DNA of 64,000 nt from Malacoraja senta (GCA_038087875.1 CM075990.1:17858001-17922000), one strand, 5' to 3'. Shown: positions 19,584 to 61,314, counted from the first letter of the stretch. Made by a program: numbers and translations. The notes: generated by a model not told the origin, from the sequence alone.

Positions 19584-19884
19584 ATCTATGGGAAACCGCT
19601 AGAGGAGGCAGTGGGAATTCTCATTTGCAGTTCTTCAGGGAAAAAAGCAAGTTGCAAACCCATTAGAATTCTCTCAGCCAGTGAAATCATATCTTTTTAA
19701 AAGTCAACTTCTTCAACATACACAGCTTTATTGTAATAATAACCACTTCATTCTGTGGAGGTCTGTCAGATAGAGAATATGGAAGCTGAAGTCTGTAAAT
19801 ATCCCAAAATACACATTGAACAAGATGCGATTGACAGACACTTGATAAATTGAGGAATCTGGAAATAGTGCCAGCACAGTGCAC

Positions 19885-25120: not shown

Positions 25121-26692
25121 TTTTTTTTTGTTTTGTTTATTTTATTAGAAGTTAATACAATATAAAACAATACAGTGGCACCTAATTTTAGGTGCCAACT
25201 ATGTCATAACGTAATGCATTCTATGTACAACCTCTAGTTTTATGTTTTAGAAAAGGAGGTAAAAAAAAAAAAAAAAGAAAGAAAAAAAAAAGAGAAAAAA
25301 AAGAGGAAAAATAAATAGTAGAAAATAGAAAAACGTGAAGTGTGTATATAAGAAAAGAAAAAATAGAAAGTAGAAATAGTAGAAAAAGACCCTTAAAAAT
25401 GAAATTTTCAAATCTTTCTTTGGAGATGTAAATCTATCCACGACCTGACCTGAAATCAGTAATCTTTACGGTACTGCTGCATCACATGATTCCAAAAAGT
25501 CGATGAAAGGTGACCAACTCCTTAAGAATTGGTCATATTTATCTATTAGGCGGAGTCTCATTTCTTCAAGGTGTGCTATGTCCGTCATATTCCTAATCCA
25601 CATTTTAATAGTTGGTATAGCTGTATTTTTCCAAAATTTAAGTATCAATTTCTTTCCAATTATTAACCCATAATTAAAGAATACTTTTTGGTCTTTGTTT
25701 AAATTGATATCTTCTAATATTATTCCAAATATAATCCATTCCATATTAGGTTCTATTCTTGACTTGAAGAGCTTTGTAAATATATCAAATATATCGCTCC
25801 AAAATGTGTTCAACTTTGTACATCCTACAAATGAATGTGTTATATTGGCATTTTGAAACAAACATTTATCGCATCTGGGAGAGACATTTGGGTAAAATTT
25901 ATTCAACCTCGTTTTTGAATAATATAGTCTATGTAATAATTTAAATTGAATTAAATTATGTCTTGCATTAATGGAACAATTATGTGTATTCATCAGATAC
26001 TTTTCCCATCTATCTTTCGGGATCTTTAGCATTAGTTCATGTTCCCAATCTTCTCTTAGTGCCTCTGTTGAGGGTAATTCTCTATTTAATATACTATTAT
26101 AAAAATATGATATTAGTTTTTCTGAATCAGCCTTAATATTCATTGCTTCTTCTAATGGTCTAAAAATATAGTTTGAGATCTATGTATATATTTCTTCATA
26201 AAGTCACATATCTGTATATATTTAAAATATTGATTATCATTCAGTTTAAATTTAAATTTTAATTGTTGAAATGATAACAATTTGCCCAGTTCATACATAT
26301 CTCCTACTTTCCAATCCCCAATCTATCCCATTGTTTATATGTTTTATCGATAAGAGATGGTTTGAATGCAGGATTATTCAGAATTGGGGTTAATACTGAT
26401 AGATTATTTAATTTCAAGGATAATTTTATTTATTTCCAAATTCTTATTGTATTGTGAATAATTGGGTTCTTCTTATATATCATACTATTCAATTTTATTG
26501 GTGAGAACAAGATCGTTCCTATATCGTACGGGAAACACTCCTCTTTTTCCATTCTTATCCACTCCGACTGGTGAGTTGAACTATCCGACCAGTACATTAT
26601 GTTCTTAATATGCACTGCCCAGTAGTAATACGTAAAGTTAGGTAGTGATAAACCCCCAGCTTCTTTAGGTTTACACAAATGCTTTCGTTGAA
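25121..26692 (-). mobile_element. 5'-truncated L1 (ORF2 C-terminus with CCHC zinc knuckle, 3'UTR, polyA); copies at ~28967-30540 and ~32823-34400
   Basis: GGLSLPNF, CDKC..HSFVGC; probable TSD aatgattagtt (25110-25120, 26703-26713). Confidence 0.88.
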
Positions 26693-29600
26693 TTAGTTAG
26701 AGAATGATTAGTTAGAGAATTATGCAAGAGAGTTACTACAGTTTTTTGTGTCTATCTTCAGTTTAAACCAGCACTTGCAGTTACTTCTGAAAGAGTTAAT
26801 ACAGTCAAATCTAATAGGGTTCACAAAATTGAGTTGCTGTAATTGTTCTTCTTACTAATTTAAGTCGGCGCTCATCTTTCCCCCATCCCACCCCCCCACA
26901 AGGAAAATTCTGGAATTTGTTTTTCTAAATGAAAGCTCTCCCCAAGAATCTGATTAAAACGGATTTTTAAAAATCTCATCCCCCCCCACCCCCACCCCTT
27001 GAGGTGGAAACTGCTGTTCCCATTGTGATGTAATTGTGGGCTGAAAGACTGTTCATGAGCAGGTTATGTAAATGAGATCCCATTGTGATGTCATAGCTCT
27101 AACTGCCACCGCTGAATCTTTCCCAAATTGGATTTAGTAAAGCTAAAAATGTTAATATCTAGTAAAATATAACACCAATCTAAACGAAACTTGTTGAAAA
27201 CACGCCACAGGACAATTGTGAGTAAGGTGGAGCAAAATTTGTAGCCTTATCATGTACCGTTTTGGCGCAATTTCAGGATCTCACTCACTTAATCACACAT
27301 GCTCACAGACAGACATCCAAACAAGATGAGAGTTTTAGTAATATACTAGACCAAGTGGGACCCGTTGGTCCTCATTCTCCCAACGCAATATTCCACCACT
27401 CACCCATTCCCCCAATGCAACCCGTTTTCACCACTCACCTGTTCCCCCCAACATAACCCGTTCTCCCAACGCAATATTCCACCACTCACACATAGACCCC
27501 AACTGGGCAGGCGTGGCTCATTTCCCCTCACAAAAATACTGGAGGAACTCAGCGGGTGCAGCAGCATCTATGGAGCGAAGAAAATAGGCAACGTTTCGGG
27601 CCGAAACCCTTCTTCAGAATTCTTTAAATTCCTGGGCGTGCACATCTCTGAGGATCTTTCCTGGTCCGAGAACACTGATGCTACTATTAAGAAAGCACAT
27701 CAGCGCCTCAACTTCCTGAGAAGATTACGGAGAGTTGGTTTGTCAAGGAGGACTCTAACTTCTACAGGTGCACAGTAGAGAGCATGCTGACCGGTTGCAT
27801 CGTGGCTTGGTTCGGCAACTTGAGCGCCCTGGAGAGGAAAAGACTACAAAGTGTAGTAAACACTGCCCAGTCCATCATCGGCTCTGACCTCCCTTCCATC
27901 GAGGGGATCTATCGCAGTCGCTGCCTCAAAAAGGCTGGCAGTATCATCAAGGACCCACACCATCCTGGCCACACACTCATCTCCCTGCTACCTTCAGGTA
28001 GAAGGTACAGGAGCCTGAAGACTGCAACGTCCAGGTTCAGGAATAGCTACTTCCCCACAGCCATCAGGCTATTAAACTTGGCTCGGACAAAACTATGAAC
28101 ATTAATAGCCCATTATCTGTTACTTGCACTTTATCAGTTTATTTATTCATGTGTGTATATATTTTTATAATGATATATGGACACACTGATCTGTTTTGTA
28201 GTCAATGCCTTCTATGTTCTGTTGTGCTGAAGCAAAGCAAGAATTTCATTTGCCTATCAGGGACACATGACAATAAACTCACTTGACTTGACTTGACTTG
28301 ATATGATTTTAAAGTGGGCAAGATGAATGTTCAGGTATCAGGTGACACCAAGACTTGGATTCTACATGGAGATTTCAAAACACTGATCACACCAATCTCA
28401 CGATTTCACTTGGTCTGTGGTAGAGATTTCCTTACTTTGCCCATTCAGATCACACTTGAGAAAGTGGTGGCAACTGTCTTTCTGACCACAGGTCATGTAG
28501 TGAAGCGACATCCTCAAAGGTGCCTGACAAAGGACAAAGGACATTTATTGTCACATACACCAAATGGTGTAGTGAAATTTGGTTGCTTCAGCAATGACAT
28601 AGTGATTGATATAGATATATGTCAGAATCAGAAGGGTGTGGTTGGGTTTTTGTGTACTCCTGAGCATTCACTCCCTCTGATTGACTGCACATTGCAATTC
28701 TGATTATGACGGTTTTTTCCAGCTTTCAAGTTAACTTTTTCTTTCCATTACCATCACTTCAGTGTTTGATTACTTTTCCAGCTTTCTGTTAACGTATTAC
28801 TTTTATTCTCTCTCTCACTCGATTTATTTATTTATTTATTGTATTTATCTTTCCTTTCCTGCTCTGAAATCAAAGAGGTAGGGCGATGAACGTTCAAGTA
28901 TACTGAAAACATATTTATGGAATGAAAAATAATGAAAGTATACTGTTTCAGTTAAAAAATGATTAGTTTTTTTTTTTGTTTTGTTTATTTTATTAGAAGT
29001 TAATACAATATAAAACAATACAGTGGCACCTAATTTTAGGTGCCAACTATGTCATAACGTAATGCATTCTATGTACAACCTCTAGTTTTATGTTTTAGAA
29101 AAGGAGGTAAAAAAAAAAAAAAAGAAAGAAAAAAAAAAGAGAAAAAAAGAGGAAAAATAAATAGTAGAAAATAGAAAAACGTGAAGTGTGTATATAAGAA
29201 AAGAAAAAATAGAAAGTAGAAATAGTAGAAAAAGACCCTTAAAAATGAAATTTTCAAATCTTTCTTTGGAGATGTAAATCTATCCACGACCTGACCTGAA
29301 ATCAGTAATCTTTACGGTACTGCTGCATCACATGATTCCAAAAAGTCGATGAAAGGTGACCAACTCCTTAAGAATTGGTCATATTTATCTATTAGGCGGA
29401 GTCTCATTTCTTCAAGGTGTGCTATGTCCGTCATATTCCTAATCCACATTTTAATAGTTGGTATAGCTGTATTTTTCCAAAATTTAAGTATCAATTTCTT
29501 TCCAATTATTAACCCATAATTAAAGAATACTTTTTGGTCTTTGTTTAAATTGATATCTTCTAATATTATTCCAAATATAATCCATTCCATATTAGGTTCT

Positions 29601-32600
29601 ATTCTTGACTTGAAGAGCTTTGTAAATATATCAAATATATCGCTCCAAAATGTGTTCAACTTTGTACATCCTACAAATGAATGTGTTATATTGGCATTTT
29701 GAAACAAACATTTATCGCATCTGGGAGAGACATTTGGGTAAAATTTATTCAACCTCGTTTTTGAATAATATAGTCTATGTAATAATTTAAATTGAATTAA
29801 ATTATGTCTTGCATTAATGGAACAATTATGTGTATTCATCAGATACTTTTCCCATCTATCTTTCGGGATCTTTAGCATTAGTTCATGTTCCCAATCTTCT
29901 CTTAGTGCCTCTGTTGAGGGTAATTCTCTATTTAATATACTATTATAAAAATATGATATTAGTTTTTCTGAATCAGCCTTAATATTCATTGCTTCTTCTA
30001 AATGGTCTAAAAATATAGTTTGAGATCTATGTATATATTTCTTCATAAAGTCACATATCTGTATATATTTAAAATATTGATTATCATTCAGTTTAAATTT
30101 AAATTTTAATTGTTGAAATGATAACAATTTGCCCAGTTCATACATATCTCCTACTTTCCCAATCCCCAATCTATCCCATTGTTTATATGTTTTATCGATA
30201 AGAGATGGTTTGAATGCAGGATTATTCAGAATTGGGGTTAATACTGATAGATTATTTAATTTCAAGGATAATTTTATTTATTTCCAAATTCTTATTGTAT
30301 TGTGAATAATTGGGTTCTTCTTATATATCATACTATTCAATTTTATTGGTGAGAACAAGATCGTTCCTATATCGTACGGGAAACACTCCTCTTTTTCCAT
30401 TCTTATCCACTCCGACTGGTGAGTTGAACTATCCGACCAGTACATTATGTTCTTAATATGCACTGCCCAGTAGTAATACGTAAAGTTAGGTAGTGATAAA
30501 CCCCCAGCTTCTTTAGGTTTACACAAATGCTTTCGTTGAATTAGTTAGAGAATGATTAGTTAGAGAATTATGCAAGAGAGTTACTACAGTTTTTTGTGTC
30601 TATCTTCAGTTTAAACCAGCACTTGCAGTTACTTCTGAAAGAGTTAATACAGTCAAATCTAATAGGGTTCACAAAATTGAGTTGCTGTAATTGTTCTTCT
30701 TACTAATTTAAGTCGGCGCTCATCTTTCCCCATCCCACCCCCCCACAAGGAAAATTCTGGAATTTGTTTTTCTAAATGAAAGCTCTCCCCAAGAATCTGA
30801 TTAAAACGGATTTTTAAAAATCTCATCCCCCCCCACCCCCACCCCTTGAGGTGGAAACTGCTGTTCCCATTGTGATGTAATTGTGGGCTGAAAGACTGTT
30901 CATGAGCAGGTTATGTAAATGAGATCCCATTGTGATGTCATAGCTCTAACTGCCACCGCTGAATCTTTCCCAAATTGGATTTAGTAAAGCTAAAAATGTT
31001 AATATCTAGTAAAATATAACACCAATCTAAACGAAACTTGTTGAAAACACGCCACAGGACAATTGTGAGTAAGGTGGAGCAAAATTTGTAGCCTTATCAT
31101 GTACCGTTTTGGCGCAATTTCAGGATCTCACTCACTTAATCACACATGCTCACAGACAGACATCCAAACAAGATGAGAGTTTTAGTAATATACTAGACCA
31201 AGTGGGACCCGTTGGTCCTCATTCTCCCAACGCAATATTCCACCACTCACCCATTCCCCCAATGCAACCCGTTTTCACCACTCACCTGTTCCCCCCAACA
31301 TAACCCGTTCTCCCAACGCAATATTCCACCACTCACACATAGACCCCAACTGGGCAGGCGTGGCTCATTTCCCTCACAAAAATACTGGAGGAACTCAGCG
31401 GGTGCAGCAGCATCTATGGAGCGAAGAAAATAGGCAACGTTTCGGGCCGAAACCCTTCTTCAGAATTCTTTAAATTCCTGGGCGTGCACATCTCTGAGGA
31501 TCTTTCCTGGTCCGAGAACACTGATGCTACTATTAAGAAAGCACATCAGCGCCTCAACTTCCTGAGAAGATTACGGAGAGTTGGTTTGTCAAGGAGGACT
31601 CTAACTTCTACAGGTGCACAGTAGAGAGCATGCTGACCGGTTGCATCGTGGCTTGGTTCGGCAACTTGAGCGCCCTGGAGAGGAAAAGACTACAAAGTGT
31701 AGTAAACACTGCCCAGTCCATCATCGGCTCTGACCTCCCTTCCATCGAGGGGATCTATCGCAGTCGCTGCCTCAAAAAGGCTGGCAGTATCATCAAGGAC
31801 CCACACCATCCTGGCCACACACTCATCTCCCTGCTACCTTCAGGTAGAAGGTACAGGAGCCTGAAGACTGCAACGTCCAGGTTCAGGAATAGCTACTTCC
31901 CCACAGCCATCAGGCTATTAAACTTGGCTCGGACAAAACTATGAACATTAATAGCCCATTATCTGTTACTTGCACTTTATCAGTTTATTTATTCATGTGT
32001 GTATATATTTTTATAATGATATATGGACACACTGATCTGTTTTGTAGTCAATGCCTTCTATGTTCTGTTGTGCTGAAGCAAAGCAAGAATTTCATTTGCC
32101 TATCAGGGACACATGACAATAAACTCACTTGACTTGACTTGACTTGATATGATTTTAAAGTGGGCAAGATGAATGTTCAGGTATCAGGTGACACCAAGAC
32201 TTGGATTCTACATGGAGATTTCAAAACACTGATCACACCAATCTCACGATTTCACTTGGTCTGTGGTAGAGATTTCCTTACTTTGCCCATTCAGATCACA
32301 CTTGAGAAAGTGGTGGCAACTGTCTTTCTGACCACAGGTCATGTAGTGAAGCGACATCCTCAAAGGTGCCTGACAAAGGACAAAGGACATTTATTGTCAC
32401 ATACACCAAATGGTGTAGTGAAATTTGGTTGCTTCAGCAATGACATAGTGATTGCTTCAGCAATGATATAGATATATGTCAGAATCAGAAGGGTGTGGTT
32501 GGGTTTTTGTGTACTCCTGAGCATTCACTCCCTCTGATTGACTGCACATTGCAATTCTGATTATGACGGTTTTTTCCAGCTTTCAAGTTAACTTTTTCTT

Positions 32601-34719
32601 TCCATTACCATCACTTCAGTGTTTGATTACTTTTCCAGCTTTCTGTTAACGTATTACTTTTATTCTCTCTCTCACTCGATTTATTTATTTATTTATTGTA
32701 TTTATCTTTCCTTTCCTGCTCTGAAATCAAAGAGGTAGGGCGATGAACGTTCAAGTATACTGAAAACATATTTATGGAATGAAAAATAATGAAAGTATAC
32801 TGTTTCAGTTAAAAAATGATTAGTTTTTTTTTTTGTTTTGTTTATTTTATTAGAAGTTAATACAATATAAAACAATACAGTGGCACCTAATTTTAGGTGC
32901 CAACTATGTCATAACGTAATGCATTCTATGTACAACCTCTAGTTTTATGTTTTAGAAAAGGAGGTAAAAAAAAAAAAAAAAGAAAGAAAAAAAAAAGAGA
33001 AAAAAAAGAGGAAAAATAAATAGTAGAAAATAGAAAAACGTGAAGTGTGTATATAAGAAAAGAAAAAATAGAAAGTAGAAATAGTAGAAAAAGACCCTTA
33101 AAAATGAAATTTTCAAATCTTTCTTTGGAGATGTAAATCTATCCACGACCTGACCTGAAATCAGTAATCTTTACGGTACTGCTGCATCACATGATTCCAA
33201 AAAGTCGATGAAAGGTGACCAACTCCTTAAGAATTGGTCATATTTATCTATTAGGCGGAGTCTCATTTCTTCAAGGTGTGCTATGTCCGTCATATTCCTA
33301 ATCCACATTTTAATAGTTGGTATAGCTGTATTTTTCCAAAATTTAAGTATCAATTTCTTTCCAATTATTAACCCATAATTAAAGAATACTTTTTGGTCTT
33401 TGTTTAAATTGATATCTTCTAATATTATTCCAAATATAATCCATTCCATATTAGGTTCTATTCTTGACTTGAAGAGCTTTGTAAATATATCAAATATATC
33501 GCTCCAAAATGTGTTCAACTTTGTACATCCTACAAATGAATGTGTTATATTGGCATTTTGAAACAAACATTTATCGCATCTGGGAGAGACATTTGGGTAA
33601 AATTTATTCAACCTCGTTTTTGAATAATATAGTCTATGTAATAATTTAAATTGAATTAAATTATGTCTTGCATTAATGGAACAATTATGTGTATTCATCA
33701 GATACTTTTCCCATCTATCTTTCGGGATCTTTAGCATTAGTTCATGTTCCCAATCTTCTCTTAGTGCCTCTGTTGAGGGTAATTCTCTATTTAATATACT
33801 ATTATAAAAATATGATATTAGTTTTTCTGAATCAGCCTTAATATTCATTGCTTCTTCTAAATGGTCTAAAAATATAGTTTGAGATCTATGTATATATTTC
33901 TTCATAAAGTCACATATCTGTATATATTTAAAATATTGATTATCATTCAGTTTAAATTTAAATTTTAATTGTTGAAATGATAACAATTTGCCCAGTTCAT
34001 ACATATCTCCTACTTTCCCAATCCCCAATCTATCCCATTGTTTATATGTTTTATCGATAAGAGATGGTTTGAATGCAGGATTATTCAGAATTGGGGTTAA
34101 TACTGATAGATTATTTAATTTCAAGGATAATTTTATTTATTTCCAAATTCTTATTGTATTGTGAATAATTGGGTTCTTCTTATATATCATACTATTCAAT
34201 TTTATTGGTGAGAACAAGATCGTTCCTATATCGTACGGGAAACACTCCTCTTTTTCCATTCTTATCCACTCCGACTGGTGAGTTGAACTATCCGACCAGT
34301 ACATTATGTTCTTAATATGCACTGCCCAGTAGTAATACGTAAAGTTAGGTAGTGATAAACCCCCAGCTTCTTTAGGTTTACACAAATGCTTTCGTTGAAT
34401 TAGTTAGAGAATGATTAGTTAGAGAATTATGCAAGAGAGTTACTACAGTTTTTTGTGTCTATCTTCAGTTTAAACCAGCACTTGCAGTTACTTCTGAAAG
34501 AGTTAATACAGTCAAATCTAATAGGGTTCACAAAATTGAGTTGCTGTAATTGTTCTTCTTACTAATTTAAGTCGGCGCTCATCTTTCCCCCATCCCACCC
34601 CCCCACAAGGAAAATTCTGGAATTTGTTTTTCTAAATGAAAGCTCTCCCCAAGAATCTGATTAAAACGGATTTTTAAAAATCTCATCCCCCCCCACCCCC
34701 ACCCCTTGAGGTGGAAACT

Positions 34720-36940
34720 GCTGTTCCCATTGTGATGTAATTGTGGGCTGAAAGACTGTTCATGAGCAGGTTATGTAAATGAGATCCCATTGTGATGTCA
34801 TAGCTCTAACTGCCACCGCTGAATCTTTCCCAAATTGGATTTAGTAAAGCTAAAAATGTTAATATCTAGTAAAATATAACACCAATCTAAACGAAACTTG
34901 TTGAAAACACGCCACAGGACAATTGTGAGTAAGGTGGAGCAAAATTTGTAGCCTTATCATGTACCGTTTTGGCGCAATTTCAGGATCTCACTCACTTAAT
35001 CACACATGCTCACAGACAGACATCCAAACAAGATGAGAGTTTTAGTAATATACTAGACCAAGTGGGACCCGTTGGTCCTCATTCTCCCAACGCAATATTC
35101 CACCACTCACCCATTCCCCCAATGCAACCCGTTTTCACCACTCACCTGTTCCCCCCAACATAACCCGTTCTCCCAACGCAATATTCCACCACTCACACAT
35201 AGACCCCAACTGGGCAGGCGTGGCTCATTTCCCCTCATCCCCCAAGACTCCCTCCCCCTCCTCTTCATCCTCCCTCATCTCTCCCCTCTCCTCCTCCCCT
35301 CCTCCATTCCCTCCCTCACCTCTCCCTCCCCTTTTCCCTACCCTCAGTCACTCCCTCCCACCCTCCATAACCCCTCCCTAACCCCCATGACCCATTGCGC
35401 CCCGTTCCCCCTACGCAATATTCCACCACTCACCTGTTCCCCCAACGCAACCCGTTTCCACCACTCACCCATTCCCCCAACGCAACCCGTTCCCCCAACG
35501 CAATATCTACCACTCATCCGTTCCCCAACGCAACCCGTTTCCACCACTCACCCATTCCCCCAACGCAACCCGTTCCCCCAACGCAATATTCTACCACTCA
35601 CCCATAGCCCCCAACTGCTCAGGCAAGGCTCATACACTCCCTCGCCCTCCTCTTCACCCACCCTCTTCTCCTCCCTCTCCTTTTCCCTACCCTCAGTCAC
35701 TCCCTCCCTCACCTCTCCCCTATCGCACTCCCCCACTACATACAATGTTTAAATAACATTTCTTCTCCTCCCTCCCTTCCCCCTCCCTCTCCTTACAACA
35801 AATCTCTCATTGAACTGGGTGGAACGCTGTTGATAGGCTGGAGGACTGTTCATGGCAGCTTATATAAATGAGATCCCATTGTGACGTCATAGCTGGAAAC
35901 TGCCAGAATCTCCCAGCAGCTGCCACAGCAACTGCCAAGTTATTGTTCTCAAAGTGGGGTTTTGTAAAGTCTTAAATGTGAATATTAGCGCTGTCGTGTA
36001 TCGTTTTGGCGTGGGTCCAGGATTACATGTGCGCGCATAGATAGATAGAAACAAGATGAGAATTTTAGTAATATACTAGACCAAGTGGGGCCCGTTGGTC
36101 CCTGTCACACGGGAGGCCTGGTCCCCCAACGCAACCCGTTCCCCCAACGCAATATTGGAACACTCACCCATAGCCCCCAAGGAAGGCCTGGCCCCCCAAC
36201 GCAGTCCGTTCCCCAACATAAGACTCCACCACTCACCCGTTTCCCCAACGCAACCCGTTCCCCCAATGCAATATTCCACCACTCACCCATAGCCCCCAAC
36301 TGAGCAGGTCGGCTCATTTTTTCAACCTCCCTCATTTTAAACTTTTAAAAAATTGCAATTGCACTAACATTTTTTAATTCTTTAATGTGATGTAGGTGCC
36401 ACCAACATGGCCATACAACTTTGCTGTGGCTTTGCAGTCATATGTGTGCTGGGTTAGGCTGGCAGATTCTTCCCCTGAAGGACATTTGCTGTCAAGGACT
36501 CAATGTCCTGGGATAGCAACATTGTAGCTAGGGCATTGTGATGTCATAGCTGGTAACTTCCAGTTCAGATTTTAAGAAATCCTTCTCAAAGTGGGGTTTT
36601 GTAAATTTTTTAATGTCATTAATTTGCGAAATATAACATCAATCTGATGTGACACGTGACACAAACGACCACAGGACAATGGTGAGTAAGGTGGTGCAAA
36701 AATGTTAGCGCTATCCTGTACCGTTTTAGCGTAGTTCCGGGATCACATGGATACTCGCACGTATAAATATAGATAGAAACAAACAAGATGAGAGGATCGA
36801 TAGATAGATACAAACAAGATGAGAGGATAGATAGATAGTTACAAACAAGATGAGAGGATAGATAGTTACAAACAAGATGAGAGGATAGATAGATAGTTGC
36901 AAACAAGATGAGATGATCGATAGGTAGATAGATAGATAGT
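34720..36940 (-). mobile_element. Head-to-tail array of non-autonomous Helitron-like units with internal minisatellites; partial copies also at ~27010-27528 and ~30860-31374
   Basis: rc 3' end GGACC-aacg-GGTCC-cacttggt-CTAG joined to 5'-type tatattactaaaactctcatcttg at 35053 and 36076. Confidence 0.68.
36776..36938 (+). repeat. Tandem ~27-31-bp units acaaacaagatgagagga(taga)n, about 5 copies
   Basis: Direct repeats; amplified Helitron-like 5' motif plus GATA microsatellite. Confidence 0.85.
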
Positions 36941-42010: not shown

Positions 42011-45000
42011 TCTATATATTTAAAAGTCTAATCTTGACCACTTCCTGTCTGCATATTGATTTTAGAAAAAACGCTACCCTGTATTGCTGTGATTTTTGGC
42101 CATCTTACTCACAGTCCTCCTCCGCTGAGCCAACCCCGAAGATTTTTCCCATAGATGAAAAATAAAAAAGTTATGAGTGTTTAAATAAACCTTGAGATCC
42201 GCTGATTGGTCCTCTCGCCTGTCAATCACCGCGATGAAGGTAACGCCCCTTCCGGAGCGGGGGGGGGGTAGGGGGGGGGGGGGGTAGGACTATAAAACCC
42301 CGGATGCCTGGACGCGAGTCAGTCACTCTGCAAGATTGCGAGGGAGAGGCCACGACTGTCATTCTAAGCTGTGGAACAACTGACTGTCATTCTAAGCTGT
42401 GAATCAACAATGTACTTGCAATCAATGATGTTAGCCCTTAATGACGATGCCATGAGTTGTTTGGCCTGCTACCCTGCCTGTGCTTGAAAGTGCAATGCTT
42501 AATTGGAAATGAAATGAAATGAAATGACAATGCCATGAGTTGTTTGGCCTGCTGCCCTGCCTGTGCTTGAAACTGCAATGCTTTATTAGGTCTGACTGTG
42601 TTTGGAAGGAATAAATGCTTTATTAGATCCGACTGTGTTTGGAAGGAATAAATGCTTTATTAGGTCCGACTGTGTTTAGTCCAAAAGTCCTGGTCATTTT
42701 GTGACTTTTGTTTAGTGGACAGGTCGCGATGATTGCATAATTTCCGGTGAGTGCAGAGGTCGCGCTGATTGCGTAATTTCCAGTAAGTGCAGAGATCACG
42801 CTGATTGCGGAAGTGCCGCCGACTGCGGAAGCCCCATAGTGGAGAGGCCGCGCTCAGCCATGTGAGTAGATTCAAGAAAGTTTACTGTCATATATATGGT
42901 GTGTGAGTGTGTGTGTATGTGTGTGTGAGTGTGAGTGTATGTGTGTGTGTGAGTGTATGTGTGAGTGTATGTCTTTTGTGGAAGGTTCGACCTGTACAAA
43001 AAGGATGGGTTGCACTTGAACCTGAGGGGGACCGATATCCTGGCGGGGAGATCTGCAAAGGCTACTGGGGAGACTTTAAACTAGAATGGTTGGGGGGAGG
43101 GACTCAAATAGAGAATGCTATTAGACAGTGTGTGAGGCAGGAGGCAGAGAAGGAAAGCACTCAGACCCAACATGTAGGGGGGAAAGAAGAAAACAATAAT
43201 AAACAGAGAATAAGAGGTGGTGGGGTTCTTAAATGGGTGAGCAGAGAAACAGAGGGGTGTAAAATGCGGGCGGAAGCAATAGGTAGCAAGGTGAAAGGTA
43301 AAAGTGGCAGGCAGACAAATCCAGGGCAAAAATCAAAAAGAGCCACTTTTCAACATAATTGTATAAGGGGTAAGAGCGTTGTAAAAACAAGCCTGAAGGC
43401 TTTGTGTCTCAATGCAAGGAGCATTCGTAATAAGGTGGATGAGTTGAACGTGCAGATAGCAATTAATGATTATGATATAGTTGGGATCACGGAGACATGG
43501 CTCCAAGGTGACCAAGGCTGGGAGCTGAACATCCAGGGATATTCAATATTCAGGAGGGATAGAGAGAAAGGAAAAGGAGGTGGGGTGGCGTTGCTGGTTA
43601 GAGAGGAGATTAACGCAGTGGAAAGGAAGGACATTAGCTTGGAGGATGTGGAATCGGTATGGGTAGAGCTGCGAAACACTAAGGGGCAGAAAACGCTGGT
43701 GGGCGTTGTGTACAGGCCACCTAGCAGTAGTAGTGAAGTTGGGGATGGCATCAAACAGGAAATTAGAAATGCGTGCAACAAAGGCAAAACAGTTATAATG
43801 GGTGACTTCAATCTACATATAGATTGGGTGAATCAAATTGGCAGGGGTGCTGAGGAAGAGGATTTCTTGGAATGTATGAGGGATAGTTATCTAAACCAAC
43901 ATGTAGAGGAACCAACGAGAGAGCAGGCTATTCTAGACTGGGTATTGAGTAATGAGGAAGGGTTAGTTAGCAGACTTGTTGTGCGTGCCCCCTTGGGCAA
44001 GAGTGATCATAATATGGTTGAGTTCTTCATTAGGATGGAGAGTGACATTGTTAATTCAGAAACAACGGTTCTGAACTTAAAGAAAGGTAACTTTGAGGGT
44101 ATGAGACGTGAATTGGCCAAGATTGACTGGCAATTAGTTCTAAAAGGGTTGACGGTGGATATGCAATGGAAGGCATTTAAAGACTGCATGGATGAACTAC
44201 AAAAATTGTTCATCCCAGTTTGGCAAAAGAATAAATCAAGGAAGGTAGTGCATCCGTGGATAACAAGGGAAATCAGGGATAGTATCAAAGCAAAAGATGA
44301 TGCGTACAAATTAGCCAGAAAAAGCAGCATACCAGAGGACTGGGAGAAATTCAGAGACCAGCAGAGGAGGACAAAGGGCTTAATTAGGAAAGGGAAAATA
44401 GATTATGAAAGGAAACTGGCAGGGAACATAAAAACTGACTGCAAAAGTTTTTATAGATATGTGAAGAGAAAGAGATTAGTTAAATCAAATGTAGGTCCCT
44501 TGCAGTCAGAAACAGGTGAATTGATCATGGGGAACAAGGATATGGCAGACCAATTGAATAACTACTTTGGTTCCGTCTTCACTAAGGAAGACATAAATAA
44601 TCTGCCGGAAATAGCAGGGGGCCGCGGGTCAAAGGAGATGGAGGAACTGAGTGAAATCCAGGTTAGTCGGGAAGTGGTGTTGGGTAAATTGAATGGATTA
44701 AAGGCCGATAAATCACCAGGGCCAGATAGGCTGCATCCCAGAGTACTTAAGGAAGTAGCTCCAGAAATAGTGGATGCATTAGTGATAATTTTTCAAAACT
44801 CTTTAGATTCTGGAGTAGTTCCTGAGGATTGGAGGGTAGCAAACGTAACCCCACTTTTTAAGAAGGGAGGGAGAGAGAAAACGGGGAATTACAGACCAGT
44901 TAGTCTAACATCGGTAGTGGGGAAACTGCTAGAGTCAGTTATTAAAGATGGGATAGCAGCACATTTGGAAAGTGGTGAAATCATTGGACAAAGTCAGCAT

Positions 45001-46293
45001 GGATTTACGAAAGGTAAATCGTGTCTGACGAATCTTATAGAATTTTTCGAGGATGTAACTAGTAGAGTGGATAGGGGAGAACCAGTGGATGTGTTGTATC
45101 TGGGCTTTCAGAAGGCTTTCGACAAGGTACCACATAAGAGATTAGGATACAAACTTAAATCACACGGTATTGGGGGTTCAGTATTGATGTGGATAGAGAA
45201 CTGGCTGGCAAACAGGAAGCAAAGAGTAGGAGTAAACGGGTCCTTTTCACAATGGCAGGCAGTGACTAGTGGGGTACCACAAGGCTCAGTGCTGGGACCC
45301 CAGCTATTTACAATTTATATTAATGATCTGGACGAGGGAATTGAAAGCAACATCTCCAAGTTTGCGGATGACACTAAGCTGGGGGGCAGTGTTAGCTGTG
45401 AGGAGGATGCTAGGAGACTGCAAGGTGACTTGGATAGGCTGGGTGAGTGGGCAAATGTTTGGCAGATGCAGTATAATGTGGATAAATGTGAGGTTATCCA
45501 CTTTGGTAGCAAAAACGGGAAGGCAGACTATTATCTAAATGGTGGCCGATTAGGAAATGGGGAGATGCAGCGAGACCTGGGGGTCATGGTACACCAGTCA
45601 TTGAAAGTAGGCATGCAGGTGCAGCAGGCAGTGAAGAAAGCGAATGGTATGTTGGCCTTCATAGCAAGAGGATTTGAGTATAGGAGCAGCGAGGTTCTAC
45701 TGCAGTTGTACAGGGTCTTGGTGAGACCACACCTGGAGTATTGCGTACAGTTTTGGTCTCCAAATCTGAGGAAGGACATTATAGCCATAGAGGGAGTGCA
45801 GAGAAGGTTCACCAGACTGATTCCTGGGATGTCAGGACTTTCATATGAAGAAAGACTGGATAGACTTGGCTTATACTCGCTAGAATTTAGGAGATTGAGA
45901 GGGGATCTTATAGAAACGTACAAGATTCTTATGGGGTTGGACAGGCTAGATGCAGGAAGATTGTTCCCGATGTTGGGGAAGTCCAGGACAAGGGGTCACA
46001 GCTTAAGGATAAGGGGGAAATCCTTTAAGACCGAGATGAGGAAAAACTTTTTCACACAGAGAGTGGTGAATCTCTGGAACGCTCTGCCACAGAGGGTAGT
46101 TGAGGCCAGTTCATTGGCTATATTTAAGAGGGAATTAGATGTGGCCCTTGTGGCTAAAGGGATCAGGGGGTATGGAGAGAAGGCAGGTACGGGATACTGA
46201 GTTGGATGATCAGCCATGATCGTATTGAATGGCGGTGCAGGCTCGAAGGGCCGAATGGCCTACTCCTGCACCTAATTTCTATGTATCTATGTA

Positions 46294-47624: not shown

Positions 47625-48330
47625 TCAATACTTTGTAGAACCACCTTTCGCTGCAATTACAGCTGCAAGTCTTTTGGGGTATGTCTCTACCAGCTTTGCA
47701 CATCTAGACTGAAATTTTTGCCCATTCTTCTTTGCAAAATAGCTCAAGCTCAGTCAGATTGGATGGAGAGCGTCTGTGAACAGCAATTTTCAAGTCTTGC
47801 CAGAGATTCTCAATTGGATTTAGGTCTGGACTTTGACTGGGCCATTCTAACACATGAATATGCTTTGATCTAAACCATTCCATTGTAGCTCTGGCTGTAT
47901 GTTTAGGGTCGTTGTCCTGCTGGAAGGTGAACCTCCGCCCCAGTCTCAAGTCTTTTGCAGACTCCAACAGGTTTTCTTCCAAGATTGCCCTGTATTTGGC
48001 TCCATCCATCTTCCCATCAACTCTGACCAGCTTCCCTGTCCCTGCTGAAGAAAAGCATCCCCACAGCATGATGCTGCCACCACCATGTTTCACAGTGGGG
48101 ATGGTGTGTTCAGGGTGATGTGCAGTGTTAGTTTTCCGCCACACATAGCGTTTTGCATTTAGGCCAAAAACTTCAATTTTGGTCTCATCTGACCAGAGCA
48201 CCTTCCTCCACATGTTTGCTGTGTCCCCCACATGTTCAAAGCTTGGGATATTTTTAATATAACCTAACCTTGCTTTAAACTTCTCCACAACTTTATCCCT
48301 GACCTGTCTGGTGTGTTCCTTGGGCTTCAT
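47625..48330 (-). pseudogene. Tc1 transposase, DD34E, with DNA-binding region deleted and a C-terminal frameshift
   Basis: WSDETK, QQDNDPKH, 34 residues to SPDLNPIE; tail CAKLVETYPKRLAAVIAAKGGSTKY in another frame. Confidence 0.9.
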
Positions 48331-48377
48331 GATGCTGTTTGTTCACTAATGTTCTCTAACAAACCTCTGAGGCCTTC

Positions 48378-53399: not shown

Positions 53400-53900
53400 A
53401 AAAATCCATGCAGATGTTGGAAATGCAAAACAGAAAGTGCAGCCAAATCAATGGGAAGAGAAGCTGAGTAGAATCTCTAGTCAATGACAGTAGAATAGAA
53501 CAGGAAACACAAGAAAACAATTACATTTTAAGTTGCAGAAGCAAGGGTGGTGTGAATAGGGGCAATATTGACAGGTGCTGATCAAAGGTGTCAATGTTAC
53601 AATCACTACAGCCTCAGACAGAAGATGATATGCTGTTGCCTGAGCTTAAATTGTGCACTGGTGGATAAAGGTAGGTGGCCAAGAAGAGGGGTTCTAGAGG
53701 GGGGGGGGGGGTAGGACAGAACATTAAAGGGATTGGCAATGGACACTCAAGATGGCTATTGCAGAATGAACTAAAATGTTTTGCACAGCATGGCCAAATC
53801 AGCAATCTGGTTTCTCCAGTGTAGATCAATCAATCAATCACAATCAGACTTTATTAGCCATGTATGTTTTGCAACATACGAGGAGATCCCATTGTGAGTA
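53400..53900 (-). mobile_element. Degenerate Penelope-like element, GIY-YIG region; upstream part at ~57586-57890
   Basis: YTGETR..AKHFSS here and HPTSS..PCNCRGYTSCP..TIQG..KQQFTC at 57590-57886; split by the CR1 insertion (tgagta at both ends). Confidence 0.6.
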
Positions 53901-56900
53901 AGGGGGAGGATCCAGTGGTCGTGGTCCATGTGGGGACCAATGACATAGGAAGGACGAGGAAGGAGGATCTGCTGAAGGAGTTTGAGCAGTTAGGGAATAA
54001 ATTAAAAAGCAGAACCTCGAGGGTACTGATCTCCGGATTGCTACCTGAGCCACGGGCCAAATCGGCGAGGGTACGTAAAATTAAAAAGCTGAATGCGTGG
54101 CTCAAAGACTGGTGTGGGAAAAATGGGTTTGGTTTCTTGGGCCACTGGCACCAGTACTGGGACAGGGGGGATCTGTTCTGTAAGGACGGACTTCACCTGA
54201 ACGGTGCTGGGACTGGGGTCCTGGCAAATCATATAACTAGGGCAGTAGAGAGGTCTTTAAACTAAGTAGCGGGGGGGAGGTATCAAGGGGGGTAATAACG
54301 GCAGGGGTAGAGGAAATAGAGCAGGGTATCAGTGGGGAAACGGAAAATCAAAATGTGACAGGAGGATCCAGAATGTGTGAAGATAAAGCTCTAGATGTAA
54401 AAGGGGCAAAAACAGAAAGGAAGGGTAGTAAAAATCATCTGAAAGTGCTGTATCTAAATGCACGGAGTATTCAAAATAAGATAAATGAATTAACGGTGCA
54501 ATTAAGTATATATAGTTATGATATCGTGGCCATTACGGAGACATGGCTGCAAGGGGATCAGGATTGGGAGTTAAATATAGAGGGGTACTCGACAATTAGA
54601 AAAGATAGACAGGAAAGAAAGGGAGGAGGGGTGGCCCTTTTAATAAGGGAGGGAATAACGGCAATAGAGAGGAAGGATATTGCGTTGAAAGATCAGGATA
54701 GTGAAACAGCTTGGGTACAGATAGAGAATAACAAGGGGAAAAAAACACTAGTGGGTGTAATTTATAGACCTCCAAATAGCTGTGACGCTGTTAGTCAGAA
54801 CATAAATCTGCAAATAGTTGACGCATGTAAAAAGGGAACTGCTGTAATCATGGGGGACTTCAATTTTCATATTAATTGGGCAAACCAAACTGGGCAGGGT
54901 AGACTAGAGGAAGAGTTTATAGAATGTATTAGAGACGGGTTCCTAGAACAGTATGTCACAGAACCGACAAGGGGGGAGGCAATCTTGGATCTGGTCCTGT
55001 GTAATGAAGCAGGATTAATTAAAAATGTCATAGTTAGGGACTCGTTGGGAACAAGTGACCACAATATGGTCGAATTTCATATTCAAATAGAAGGGGAGCA
55101 GGTTGAAACTCAGGCTAGGGTACTTAGTCTAAATAAGGGGGATTATGAAGGTATGAGGACTGAGCTGATCAAAGTTGACTGGGATAGCAGACTCAAGAAT
55201 AAGACGGTACATGAGCAGTGGTGTACGTTTAAGGATCTACTGTATAACCTTCAAGAAAAATTTATTCCTATGAAGAAAAAAAGGGGTAAGGGAAAGAACA
55301 GTCAGCCATGGCTCAGTAAAACTATAAAGGATAGTATTCGGCTGAAGGCAAGGGCATATAAGGTAGCCAGAGATAGTGGGAGGGTAGAGGATTGGGAAGC
55401 ATTTAAAGGTCAGCAAAAAATAACTAAGAGATTAATTAAGACGGGGAAAATAGACTATGAAAGGAATTTAGCGAACAACATAAAAACTAATAGTAAGAGT
55501 TTTTATAGCTATATAAAAAGAAAAAGGGTGGCTAAGGTGAACGTTGGTCCATTGGAGGGTGAGACTGGAGAGTTGTTGGTGGGGAACATGGAAATGGCAA
55601 AGGCATTAAACGAGTATTTTGTATCAGTCTTCACCATAGAAGACACAAAAAATATTCCAACGCTGGATAAACAGGGGGCGGTAGGAATGGAGGAGCTAAA
55701 TACTATTAAGATCACCAAGGTGGTATTAGGGAAATTAATGAGACTGAAGGAGGATAAATCCCCTGGGCCTGATGGATTACATCCAAGGGTCTTGAGGGAG
55801 ATAGCGGTGGGGATTGTGGATGCATTGGTGATAATTTTCCAAAACTCCCTGGAGGCAGGAACGGTCCCAGTGGATTGGAAAATGGCCAATGTAACACCTA
55901 TATTTAAAAAAGGAAGTAAACAGAAGGCGGGTAACTATAGACCGGTTAGTCTAACATCGGTGGTGGGTAAAATGTTAGAGACAATTATTAAAGAAACACT
56001 AACGGGGCACTTGGATAAACATGACTTCATCGGACAGAACCAGCATGGTTTTGTGAAGGGGAAGTCCTGTTTGACGAATCTGCTCGAATTCTTTGAGGAA
56101 GTAACAACCCGGGTGGATAAAGGGGAACCGGTGGATGTGGTATACTTGGACTTCCAAAAGGCTTTTGACAAGGTGCCACATAAGAGACTATTGCTAAAAA
56201 TAAAAAATTATGGGATTGGGGGTAATATATTAGCATGGGTAGAGGATTGGCTAACAAATAGGAAGCAGAGAGTGGGGATAAATGGTTCATACTCGGGATG
56301 GCAACCGGTAACTAGCGGGGTTCCGCAAGGGTCGGTGCTGGGACCCCAGTTGTTCACAATTTATATAAATGATTTGGAGGAGGGAACCAAGTGTAATATA
56401 TCAAAATTTGCGGACGATACAAAAATGGGAGGAAAAGTAGGGGATGAGGAGGATAGGAAGAGTCTGCAAAAGGATATAGATAAGCTAGGTGAGTGGGCAA
56501 CAACTTGGCAGATGAAATTTAATACTAATAAATGTGAAGTCATTCACTTTGGGAAAAAAAATGATAGGGCAAGTTATTTTCTAAATGAGGTGGAGCTGCG
56601 TTGTAATGCAACGCAAAGGCATCTAGGGGTAGTAGTACATGAATCACTAAAAGTTAGTATGCAGGTGCAGCAAGCAATCAGGAAGGCCAATGGAGTTTTG
56701 GCCTTTATTGCTAGGGGGATTGAGTATAAAAACACGGAGGTCTTGCTGCAGCTGTACACAGTATTAGTGAGACCACATTTGGAATACTGTGTACAGTTCT
56801 GGGGTCCATACTTAAGAAAGGATGTACTGGCCCTGGAGGCAGTGCAGCGAAGGTTTACAAGATTAATTCCTGCAATGAGGGGATTGACATATGAGGAAAG

Positions 56901-57580
56901 GTTAAGTAGGCTGGAACTCTACTCTTTGGAGTTTAGAAGAATGAGAGGCGATCTCATTGAAACATATAAGATCGTGAGGGGCCTTGATCGGGTGGATGCA
57001 CCGAGGATGTTCCCAATGATCGGGGAAACTAGAACTAGGGGACATAGTTGTAGAATAAGGGGGGGCTCTTTTAAAACTGAGATGAGGAAGAACTTCTTCA
57101 CCCAGAGGGTGGTTAATTTATGGAATTCACTGTCCCAGGGAGCAGTGGAAGCAGAAACATTAAATATATTTAAGTCTAAAATAGATGGTTTTTTAGCTGC
57201 CAAGGGGATAAGGGGCTACGGGGAGAAGGCAGGGATATGGACCTAGGTATGGTTAGTATAGTAAGACCTGAGTGATCTCCTGGACAAGTGTCGATCGCCT
57301 GGATTGGGGTCGGAGAGGAATTTCCCGGATTTTTTTCCCGAATTGGACCTGGGTTTTTATCCGGTTTTTTGCCTCCCCCAGGAGATCACGCGGTTCTTGG
57401 GGTGGAGAGGGGTGATAGCGGTATAAAGGGGAGGGTAGTGTCTTGTGTTCTGTGTCTTGTGTCTACTGTTTGTGGGTAAGGGTGTCTGTTTAGTGTTCAG
57501 CCATGAGCGAATGGCGGTGCGGGCTCGATGGGCCTGGTGGTCTACTCTCGCACCTACTTTCTATGTTTCTATGTTTCTAT
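53901..57580 (+). mobile_element. CR1 lineage C: partial esterase ORF1 (to 54265), open ORF2, long 3'UTR, (tttctatg)n tail
   Basis: HVGTNDIG, DGLHLN; APE and RT motifs intact. Confidence 0.95.
54256..57246 (+). CDS. CR1 ORF2p (APE endonuclease plus reverse transcriptase), uninterrupted frame
   Basis: NARS, ETW, GDFN, SDH, LDFQKAFDKV, GVPQGSVLGP, FADDTK; frame open from the slippery site. Confidence 0.88.
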   Translation, partial: FKLSSGGEVSRGVITAGVEEIEQGISGETENQNVTGGSRMCEDKALDVKGAKTERKGSKNHLKVLYLNARSIQNKINELTVQLSIYSYDIVAITETWLQGDQDWELNIEGYSTIRKDRQERKGGGVALLIREGITAIERKDIALKDQDSETAWVQIENNKGKKTLVGVIYRPPNSCDAVSQNINLQIVDACKKGTAVIMGDFNFHINWANQTGQGRLEEEFIECIRDGFLEQYVTEPTRGEAILDLVLCNEAGLIKNVIVRDSLGTSDHNMVEFHIQIEGEQVETQARVLSLNKGDYEGMRTELIKVDWDSRLKNKTVHEQWCTFKDLLYNLQEKFIPMKKKRGKGKNSQPWLSKTIKDSIRLKARAYKVARDSGRVEDWEAFKGQQKITKRLIKTGKIDYERNLANNIKTNSKSFYSYIKRKRVAKVNVGPLEGETGELLVGNMEMAKALNEYFVSVFTIEDTKNIPTLDKQGAVGMEELNTIKITKVVLGKLMRLKEDKSPGPDGLHPRVLREIAVGIVDALVIIFQNSLEAGTVPVDWKMANVTPIFKKGSKQKAGNYRPVSLTSVVGKMLETIIKETLTGHLDKHDFIGQNQHGFVKGKSCLTNLLEFFEEVTTRVDKGEPVDVVYLDFQKAFDKVPHKRLLLKIKNYGIGGNILAWVEDWLTNRKQRVGINGSYSGWQPVTSGVPQGSVLGPQLFTIYINDLEEGTKCNISKFADDTKMGGKVGDEEDRKSLQKDIDKLGEWATTWQMKFNTNKCEVIHFGKKNDRASYFLNEVELRCNATQRHLGVVVHESLKVSMQVQQAIRKANGVLAFIARGIEYKNTEVLLQLYTVLVRPHLEYCVQFWGPYLRKDVLALEAVQRRFTRLIPAMRGLTYEERLSRLELYSLEFRRMRGDLIETYKIVRGLDRVDAPRMFPMIGETRTRGHSCRIRGGSFKTEMRKNFFTQRVVNLWNSLSQGAVEAETLNIFKSKIDGFLAAKGIRGYGEKAGIWT

Positions 57581-58485
57581 GAGTACTGACAACAGTGCAC
57601 CAATGCAAGTGAATTGCTGCTTCACCCAAAGATTGGATCCCTGGATGGTTGGGAGAGAAGCAGTAATAGGGCAGCTGGTATATCCCCTGCAATTGCATGG
57701 AGAGTACCATGAGCTGAGTGGTTCATTGAAAAGTGTAACAGGAGTTCCAGTCAGAATGGTCAGAACAGTCAGAACATCATTGGAGGTGATGGAAACTATG
57801 GAGGCTGATATGTTGAATGTAGAAGATGTTGGGTGGATGGTGAGCGAGTAAGACACTGTATCCTTGTTCTGGCTTGGAAGAGGCAAAAGCAGAGAGACTG
57901 CCTTCGATCCCTATATATCCCAGTGCCTGTAGAGGAAAGTCAGTGAATATTTTTAAGGCAGAGATAGATAGATATTTGATTAGTACAGGTGTCAATTATT
58001 ATGGGGAGAAGACAGGAGAATGGGGTTAGGATGGATAGATAGATCAGTCATGATTGAATGGCGGAATAGACTTGATGGGCCGAATGGCTTAATTCTACTA
58101 TCCCTTATGACCCTATCAACCCACTCCTTGCTGTATTTACTGAAATCAATACATATTCAACAGGTAAATAGGAACCAAATCAAAACATTGCAATCAAAAC
58201 GAAACAAATCAGCATACATAAACGGCTGGTTTCTACCAGATAGTATCTGCATAGGCAGATCAACACTATTTTTATTATTAAAAATATCGCAGGTAAATAT
58301 TCCCCAAATAAGGATTTAACAATCCATTAAACAAATCAACCCATTGAGTTTAACTTGTACAGGCTAGAAATATCACGGTGTAACTGTAAATCTGCTCAAA
58401 ATGACATCAAACTAAGAAAACTGTAAAATGCATGCCAGATGATGTCAAATTCTATAATGCTCCCACAAAACATGGTTCAGTAAAC

Positions 58486-59389: not shown

Positions 59390-60133
59390 CTCTTATACGG
59401 GTGTCAGGTTATGGGGAGAAGGCAGGAGATTGGGGTTAGGGGGGAAGATATAGATCAGCCATGATTGAATGGTGGAGTAGACTTAATGGGCCAAAAGGCC
59501 TAATTCTGCTCCTATCACTTAAGACATTATGACCCAATGCCTCAAATTCATTACTGGCTTCCTGATAGAAGACAGAGTTGTAATGGACGGCCGATTTTCA
59601 GTCTACCGGACTACGACCAGTGGAGTTCCGCAAGGATCTGTGCCGAGACCTCTGTTGTTTCATATATCTCAAACAACAATATATTATATGCACAGGAGCA
59701 CCTAAAGGCTGTGTGCAGTCCCCTGCTCTACTCACTCTATACCCATAACTGTGTAGCCAGTCACAGTTCCAACTCCATCGGTAAATTCGCCAAAGAAACC
59801 AACGGTGTTGGACAAAGTCAGAATATAGGAGGAAGATCGATCATCTGAACGATTCCACAACAACATCCTTGTTCAACCTTGGACCAGGTAGGGTAATGCA
59901 CAGTCTTTTACCCAGAGCAGAGGAATTAAGGCCCAGAGGATGCAGAAAGATTTTAGGAACCTGAGGGGCAACTTTTTCACTCAGAAGTTTGTGGGTATAT
60001 GGAACAAACTGCCAGCGGAGGTAGTTGAGGCAGGTACTATAACAACATTTAAAAGACATTGGTATATGGATAGGAAAGGCATAGAGAGATACGGGCCAAA
60101 TACAGGTGGGACTTGTGTAGATGGGGCATCTTG
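59390..60133 (+). mobile_element. Degenerate CR1/Rex fragments; CR1 tail resumes at 61175-61240
   Basis: CR1 tail motifs; NLRGNFFTQK..WNKLP; SPLLYSLYTH. Confidence 0.6.
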
Positions 60134-61174
60134 TAGGTATGTTACAAAACTTACCTTCAGTCGTGCTGTAATTCTGCCACTGGCCGTGTGCGCGATTTTG
60201 GCGCCTTTAAGGGGGGGCGGGGTTAAAACGCGGGTTTCTCCTCCCTTGTCCAAGTTAATATTGTGTTGGAGTACACGCGTTGGCTGATGAATCGTTCCTA
60301 GTGGCGATTTGTGAATTTTTTATTTTTATTAAATCGTCAATGTCAGCGCTACAATAATTTTAAAATCAGCTCCTGAAGCGTCAACGCCGATAACGGGGAC
60401 GGATTTCACGCATGGGACAGGTAAACGAAAGTGCTTTCTTTAAATGTATAAAAGTGCTTCTTAAGAAGCCTTTAATTCACATTTTTTCATGCGACACGGT
60501 GATTTTATTCCCCGAATTAACGGCAGTATTTTTCATGCCAATACGGGGTTAAATTCACCGCAAATCAACGTTCCAAAAGATCGCGTTCCAGTAATCCTCA
60601 CTCGCAAGATGAATTAAATGTCCATTAATTTACAGGTATTAAACATTCAATTCCTTCCATTTGGCCTGTAAATTCATGAAAATTAGATTTAAAAATTATG
60701 TTATATTGTGAATTATTGTGTGAATGTTATTTGGACACTTAGGCTATTTAAAAATGTTAATCTATTCTTAAGAAATTGATAGATGTTTAGATCTAGTAAT
60801 TGAATTTTGTAATTAGCTACAATTAGGTAACTAACTCATTATACGCTTTACTTTCATGTCTTCGAAGTAAGATTGTTTCATATTTGTTTCAGAATGCTTC
60901 AATCTATAATAACTGAACATTTCTTTCAGTTATCATAATTTTTAAGAAATTTATGGGCTTTTAACTGTCCTCGATCACAGCTTTTGTGTTAAGTCAATGG
61001 AAAAGCAATAGGGAACTAGATGCTAATTTCTGAGTATGATAATGGCCATAACTTTTTTAATACTGAAGATATGAAAGTGAATTAAGTGTCAAATTAAACT
61101 TCTTTTTATGCTTTATCTGATGGGATAAATTGCAGACTTTATTTTTTAAATCTCAAAATTTTGTAACATTGCTA
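60134..61174. mobile_element. Non-autonomous DNA transposon, 1041 bp, 7-bp TSD (copy 2)
   Basis: Same TIRs as 18543-19583; TSD catcttg at 60127-60133 and 61175-61181. Confidence 0.85.
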
Positions 61175-61314
61175 CATCTTGATCAGCATTGACAAGTTGG
61201 GCCAAAGGGCCTGTTTCCATGCTGTATGACTCTATGACGATATTTGACCTACCAAAGTGTAACATCTCACACTTGCCCAGATTAAACCCCATCTGCCACT
61301 TCTCCACTGTAACT

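Follow-up and report, generated by a model that had tools for sequence, protein, structure and literature searches.

CR1 is the dominant group of LINEs in most vertebrates (PMC13343379), and the translation of ORF2 in LINEs has been described as an open question (PMC3894237). SART1, with its UAAUG coupling, and L1, with its unconventional reinitiation, resemble CR1 in having a bicistronic LINE RNA and a low output of ORF2, which they make as a separate protein (PMC3894237, PMC5009743). The Dictyostelium elements TRE5-A and TRE3-A are likewise APE-RT LINEs, and according to the legend of a review their ORF2 needs a -1 frameshift (PMC5911963); they differ from CR1 in belonging to another clade and in their type of ORF1. 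The locus presented here shares with the canonical vertebrate CR1 LINEs of PMC13343379 the order of the domains, an esterase ORF1, a tandem-repeat 3' tail and 5' truncation, and what it adds to them is a putative recoding signal at the end of ORF1. A literature search found no paper on frameshifting in CR1; the 1997 descriptions of full-length turtle and chicken CR1 and the Repbase notes lie outside that search, and a prior mention is possible. The terms "frameshift", "overlap", "start codon" and "translation" are absent from the main text of PMC13343379 in a term search.

The window, that is, the whole stretch of 64,000 nucleotides that was analysed, carries this locus near its 3' end, with the following parts.

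53895-53900, + strand: likely left target-site duplication, TGAGTA, matching 57580-57585
53901-57581, + strand: CR1 LINE, truncated at its 5' end, from a family that is young and has a very high copy number (Pfam, read depth, sequence comparison)
53903-54265, + strand: 3' remnant of ORF1 with SGNH/GDSL esterase domain, last 120 codons and TAA (Pfam PF13472, E 6e-12)
54256-54262, + strand: slippery heptamer T_TTA_AAC, X_XXY_YYZ in the zero-frame register, the same in 15 of 15 junctions
54263-54265, + strand: ORF1 stop codon directly 3' of the heptamer; a stop stands there in 13 of 15 junctions (TAG 10, TAA 2, TGA 1)
54262-54447, + strand: linker from heptamer to endonuclease, 62 codons, rich in G/E/S/K and stop-free in the -1 frame
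54273-54277, + strand: conserved G5 core within the G7 at 54271-54277, 10 nt after the heptamer, candidate stimulator, present in 13 of 13 junctions
54287-54292, + strand: second G-run (G6), family-specific and polymorphic (54290 G>T)
54373-54375, + strand: first in-frame AUG of ORF2, a rival start, with A at -3, before the endonuclease
54448-57246, + strand: body of ORF2, APE endonuclease followed by reverse transcriptase (Pfam PF03372, PF14529, PF00078)
57247-57581, + strand: 3' UTR with terminal (TTTCTATG)3 at 57558-57581
57580-57585, + strand: likely right target-site duplication, TGAGTA, 6 bp, pairing with 53895-53900

A 3' tail of short tandem repeats, the lack of poly(A) and 5' truncation are the marks of CR1 LINEs. 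The copy at 53901-57581 has a tandem-repeat tail without poly(A), starts inside ORF1 and is flanked by a 6-bp duplication; with its SGNH esterase ORF1 and APE-RT ORF2 it is, judged from its sequence, a CR1 LINE. The family's full-length ORF1 protein (P0056) is identical to the remnant at 118 of 120 residues and matches PDB 4C1B, a solved LINE esterase, at E 5e-29. The nearest named relatives of the ORF1 of the neighbouring copy are little-skate proteins (84-87% identity), which makes a skate or ray the likely host, and ORF2 is 43-44% identical over more than 900 aa to that of two bird-type loci (L004, L006). The family is young and very abundant, since half or more of its words occur in 15 of the 24 listed runs and only 6 of 501 positions are variable at >=4% (four runs; the runs used for read variation are contigs, from DNA or of a type not known). 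In RNA runs just 10-13% of the family's words are present. The first part of its 3' UTR, 57247-57510 (+), comprises about 260 extra nt that no other CR1 copy in the window shares.

The window also contains repeats of other kinds. Three tandem units of about 3.85 kb at 23682-35237, 99.6-99.7% identical and all containing a fragment of a LINE-like 3' ORF (weak zf-RVT match), represent either a recent tandem duplication or an assembly artefact. A DDE_3 transposase fragment lies at 47704-48342 (-), E 1e-14, which is presumably part of a Tc1/mariner-type DNA transposon, and a 1.05-kb repeat is present in two copies, 18533-19587 and 60125-61179, with 96% identity.

The first-pass annotation had placed the heptamer immediately before the stop codon of ORF1, with the -1 frame open to 57246, and the ORF and frame analysis confirms both. 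ORF1 ends with TCT TTA AAC TAA at 54254-54265, the heptamer TTTAAAC occupying 54256-54262, and ORF2, which lies at -1 to ORF1, is open from stop to stop over 54241-57246 (1001 aa). The G-tracts are also as claimed: the heptamer is followed by 8 nt (54263-54270), G7 (54271-54277), A, GG, TATCAA and G6 (54287-54292). The bare heptamer is common in the window, with 33 matches on both strands against 16 expected (12 of the 33 inside a triplicated unit), so that the motif by itself means little. The combination of the heptamer with GGGGG after exactly 10 nt occurs only at three CR1 junctions of the window, at 54256, 43075 and 15829, the last two of which are the following.

43075-43081, + strand: identical heptamer at the ORF1/ORF2 junction of the second CR1 copy, which appears chimeric and has an ORF open over 42907-46200 (ORF scan, comparison)
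15823-15829, - strand: identical heptamer at the ORF1/ORF2 junction of the third CR1 copy, whose ORF1 is near-complete and in which no AUG intervenes before the endonuclease

The claim that the heptamer is kept in divergent lineages stands, with a correction. It is identical at all three sites, the 43075 (+) and 15829 (-) junctions reading ACT TTA AAC TAG against the TCT and TAA of the 54256 junction; these two, which had been treated as "lineage A", are however one family, 91% identical over 264 nt. As the 43075 copy is moreover apparently chimeric, the window holds two independent junction lineages and not three. The chimeric-looking copy, 42972-46200 (+), has an intact frame of 1097 codons, in which 42972-43235 resembles 15669-15932 (91%) and the remainder matches the family at 9375-11919 (98%), the two being joined in frame. 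The ORF2 of the 53901-57581 copy is 66% identical to that of the 43075 copy and 39-44% identical to that of the 15829 copy, and its ORF1 is 52% identical to that of the latter.

Further junctions were sought with a motif lying 140 codons upstream of the ORF1 end, which yielded 35 loci of host-like DNA in metagenomes. Sixteen match the ORF1 end, 4 of them stopping short of it and 12 covering it; apart from these 12, the other 23 of the 35 end earlier or give no match. The 12 loci are mostly bird-type by protein similarity, and 6 of them come from one data set, so that they do not amount to 12 independent lineages. In the three junctions of the window and these 12 loci, TTTAAAC is identical (15/15), silent positions included, and the codon before it, which encodes Ser, Thr, Ala or Cys, yet ends in T in all 15. 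A control Leu, invariant in the 12 indel-free copies (L006, L018 and L028 left out), is encoded by 4 different codons; in these ORF1s TTA accounts for 16 of 125 Leu codons and AAC for 15 of 44 Asn codons, and the 72 nt upstream of the heptamer have a median identity of 51% across the 15 junctions. Upstream of the heptamer the -1 frame meets a stop within 1-5 codons in 9 of the 15 junctions, and the -1 register is kept across linkers of 37, 51, 55, 61, 65, 88 and 110 codons. Synonymous variation of TTA and AAC, which had been named as evidence against a signal at this place, was looked for in the 15 junctions and none was found; together with the covarying terminal residues of distant ORF1 proteins described below, this supports the earlier proposal that selection acts on the RNA signal.

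Within the 54256 family itself variation is too low to test the heptamer site: no variable position among the 501 nt falls on the heptamer or the AUG. Run X3 contains a 1-nt and a 2-nt deletion at 54365/54367, upstream of AUG 54373, each at about 9% of depth and adding up to 3 nt; from their equal depth they appear to lie on the same molecule, with the frame kept. In shuffles, the absence of stops ahead of the first AUG or the endonuclease has a probability of 0.11, 0.025, 0.02, 0.62 and 0.15 in the junctions evaluated, the first value being that of the 54256 family, with its 36 stop-free codons before AUG 54373.

The consensus elements in the supplementary table of PMC13343379 extend the range of the junction. 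By eye, 17 of the 22 heptamer-plus-stop places viewed there (out of 23) are ORF1/ORF2 junctions, with codes that read as sharks, rays, chimaera, coelacanth, bowfin, frog, crocodilians and one other; the search was conditioned on the heptamer-plus-stop motif and shows presence only. G5 stands at the 10-nt spacing in 6 of these 17, the rest having another spacing or no G-run. In the same supplement AldAff_Crack-2, labelled Crack, has an esterase-like ORF that ends with heptamer and stop, and no G5 run. No relatives were found in viral contigs in three scans, and prokaryotic genome contigs gave one weak, unrelated match, so that neither supplied DNA of the distant ORF1 clade with Gln-Gly-Asn ends.

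Since the heptamer is unchanged in related elements of the window and in bird-type elements, the ORF2 enzyme is likely made by -1 slippage. The full-length CR1 RNA would probably yield ORF1p by termination and, by slippage on UUA AAC aided by the adjacent stop codon and the G5, a minor ORF1-ORF2 fusion, a reading that is held here with good confidence. Most ribosomes would stop at the end of ORF1 and release ORF1p (312 aa in the full-length P0056), while a minority with tRNA-Leu and tRNA-Asn on UUA AAC would slip to UUU AAA and read 994 further codons, giving a fusion of about 1306 aa according to the Gag/Gag-Pol logic of retroviruses. The pause might come from the adjacent stop codon and a single-stranded G-tract, rather than from a hairpin or G-quadruplex, and the G-tract could perhaps be bound by a protein or act at the mRNA entry channel. 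Because the 53901-57581 copy lacks the start of ORF1, the signal would act in full-length source elements and not in this copy. Natural ORF1-ORF2 fusion proteins were considered as proof and set aside: the 15 matches are mostly automatic gene models, and the 2 that contain the Phe-Lys-Leu of the -1 frame are indistinguishable from spliced models or broken copies.

The same slippage could be stimulated by a G-quadruplex formed by the downstream G-runs, as the first-pass annotation had suggested in calling the sequence G-quadruplex-like. In reporters, G-quadruplexes placed 6-8 nt after U3A3C gave up to 7% -1 frameshifting (PMC3919603), and G-quadruplexes and frameshifting in human genes are the topic of PMC12809536. 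The G4Hunter-type score at the 54256 junction is 2.2, a two-tier pattern is possible in 7 of the 13 junctions that are long enough, and ViennaRNA folds a G-quadruplex in 4 of the 13, the 54256 family not being among these. Against this, a three-tier G-quadruplex with loops up to 7 nt is found in 0 of 13 junctions, and the two-tier pattern is missing in 6. In the 54256 family a three-tier form is possible only with long loops and a third run at 54304-54307, so that the label overstates the case; the minimum-energy prediction does not adopt this form, and the variant 54290 G>T, in which the G6 run is interrupted, no longer allows it. Run X1 contains this variant alone, and in X6 it makes up about 18% of depth. 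Stimulation in the reporters is strongest at 6-8 nt and weakens when loops lengthen or quartets become fewer (PMC3919603), whereas the spacing conserved at the junctions is 10 nt. A G-quadruplex is thus an unlikely stimulator.

What is conserved is the G5 core at a fixed 10-nt spacing together with a short second G-run: GGGGG stands 11-15 nt past the heptamer in all 13, even where its bases are third positions of -1-frame codons. In the 13 junctions no conserved hairpin was found downstream of the heptamer, where a canonical -1 site carries a stem-loop or pseudoknot at 5-9 nt; the 70 nt after the 54256 site fold at only -4.3 kcal/mol, and a search of Rfam up to E 1 was empty. The idea that the G-tract pairs with the 3' UTR of its own element was rejected, as the best duplex (-22.9 kcal/mol, at about 57370) was reached by 8 of 150 fair shuffles and none was present in 7 other targets. 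A 12-bp inverted repeat at about 57272-57283 and 57379-57390 adjoins a C-run complementary to the junction G-tract, a pairing that is not significant.

A further possibility is that ORF2 is translated mainly by termination and reinitiation after the ORF1 stop, from AUG 54373 in this family, from UAAUG or UAG-NN-AUG elsewhere, or independently of an AUG as proposed for L1; the heptamer and G-tract would then be signals that keep the ribosome in place, or frameshifting would contribute only as a side route. SART1 and L1 provide the precedents (PMC3894237, PMC5009743). AUG 54373, which the first-pass annotation had raised as a caveat that still holds, is in frame, with A at -3, and precedes the endonuclease, and an in-frame AUG lies 3-4 codons after the heptamer start in 5 of the 15 junctions. 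The out-of-frame AUG-UGA at 54353, however, comes before AUG 54373, and the 54256 junction lacks the SART1-type UAAUG stop-start overlap, its sequence being TAA GT AGC. The position of the first AUG, moreover, varies among the junctions (codon 3, 4, 18, 22, 39, 63, 67, 89 or none, the 15829 junction and L018 having no AUG ahead of the endonuclease motif), whereas the heptamer is conserved. Reinitiation also predicts neither the switching among X_XXY_YYZ heptamers nor the clade with a heptamer 2-12 codons before the stop to which the ORF1 proteins point. As the main route it is quite improbable, though it may act alongside frameshifting, or instead of it, in some lineages. The heptamer is followed by UAAUG at the L034 junction and in the consensus elements ScyCan_CR1-1a, SquAca_CR1-6c and SquAca_CR1-17a (PMC13343379 supplement), and this coincidence of slippery site and stop-start overlap suggests that both routes may coexist.

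The conservation might instead reside in the protein, if ORF1p needed a terminal Leu-Asn and the nucleotides reflected shared ancestry and codon bias. ORF1 homologues beyond the aligned junctions bear on this. At least 120 homologues are listed, and of the 81 with an intact end 72 terminate in Leu-Asn, their source names being those of sharks, rays, coelacanth, frogs, turtles and squamates; the residue before Leu-Asn can be encoded by NNT in 70 of the 72. A distant ORF1 clade ends mostly in Gln-Gly-Asn. Among 150 cluster representatives (50% clustering), 109 have an intact tail, and in 59 of these the final triplet of residues is compatible with a canonical heptamer, against 1-12 at positions -2 to -15. 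The residue before Leu-Asn is unable to end in T in 1 of 40 cases, while before Gly-Asn it is Gln in 9 of 13 and in none unable to end in G; it thus covaries as T_TTA and G_GGA demand (Fisher 7.6e-6, the sequences not being independent).

In a tree of 116 esterase domains (101 ingroup, 15 outgroup), built with the terminal residues left out, a fitting triplet stands at the homologous place in 85 of 101 ingroup proteins (control windows 24 and 13) and in 5 of 15 outgroup proteins (controls 5 and 0); it is missing in 16 of the 101. Nine proteins of one clade (P0205, P0219, P0231, P0237, P0260, P0264, P0266, P0275, P0284) have x-Lys-Asn 2-12 codons before the stop, with x always able to end in A, which fits A_AAA_AAC with a longer overlap of the ORFs; their sister proteins fit U_UUU_UUY/A, as judged from protein. 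The 2-12 codon window was picked after the data had been seen, and the search profile contained Leu-Asn and Gly-Asn ends. The heptamers of the distant clades are deduced from protein only, and the four main terminal patterns would correspond to four heptamers that are among the most shifty on mammalian ribosomes (PMC5009743). One of the proteins, P0022, is a CR1 ORF1, 58% identical to that of the window. In a public assembly it stands on a 4-kb contig under the name of a Pseudomonas aeruginosa hydrolase, likely as host contamination.

A need for particular residues would agree with the terminal Asn common to the Leu-Asn, Gly-Asn and Lys-Asn ends, and with the few proteins that end in Ser-Asn or Glu-Asn, which fit no heptamer. 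It does not account for the lack of synonymous change (0/15) where control codons vary, nor for the covariation of the preceding residue with the first base of the heptamer. Since x-Lys-Asn is internal in its clade, the need for a terminal residue cannot explain it, and Gly-Phe and Phe-Phe ends dispense with Asn; the 4C1B match stops before the terminal residues, and outgroup esterases end otherwise. Conservation at the protein level is therefore largely refuted and very improbable. A joining of the two frames ahead of translation, whether the RNA polymerase slips on the T3A3 run or a splice spans the stop, is scarcely credible: a T and A run could slip, and two database proteins (P0033, P0050) run from ORF1 into the Phe-Lys-Leu of the -1 frame, but indels in individual copies are the best explanation for these proteins, three bases make a short run for a slipping polymerase, the set of heptamers agrees with the rules of tRNA re-pairing, and no joints or indels occur at the heptamer in the contigs examined (from DNA or of a type not known), a weak point in itself.

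Programmed -1 frameshifting, as the preferred reading, may be extended to animals at large, although such an extension is tentative. Esterase-type CR1s would rely on an ancient -1 frameshift to make an ORF1-ORF2 fusion of the Gag-Pol kind, the heptamer switching among the slipperiest types, and in vertebrates the shift would be driven by a new, structure-free stimulator, G5 at a fixed 10-nt spacing, which a trans-acting protein would read. With a 7-nt site defined and the spacing of the G-tract fixed, the ORF2 question becomes testable by a 60-nt reporter. If the reading is true, annotations that begin CR1 ORF2 at an internal Met miss part of it, the active enzyme is attached to the esterase protein of ORF1, and the few natural frameshift stimulators known gain one that is apparently unstructured. 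If the G5 is read by a trans-acting protein, it offers a possible point at which the host or ORF1p could control transposition.

The junction can finally be compared with described recoding sites outside LINEs. The -2/-1 shift of the arterivirus PRRSV likewise involves no RNA structure and has a short motif about 11 nt past the shift site (PMC7939443). That motif is C-rich and bound by nsp1-beta and PCBP, whereas the CR1 motif is G-rich and its binder hypothetical; the likeness is one of analogy only. The viral -1 sites (IBV U_UUA_AAC, retroviral gag-pol) share with CR1 the heptamer and its register, and in them too the structural ORF comes first and the polymerase follows in the -1 frame (PMC5009743). 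Unlike these, the CR1 junction belongs to a LINE, in which Pfam found no protease domain. On the evidence of its sequence, it would work as a viral -1 frameshift does and depart from it in the structural stimulator, having, in place of a conserved stem-loop, G5 at 10 nt and an adjacent stop codon.
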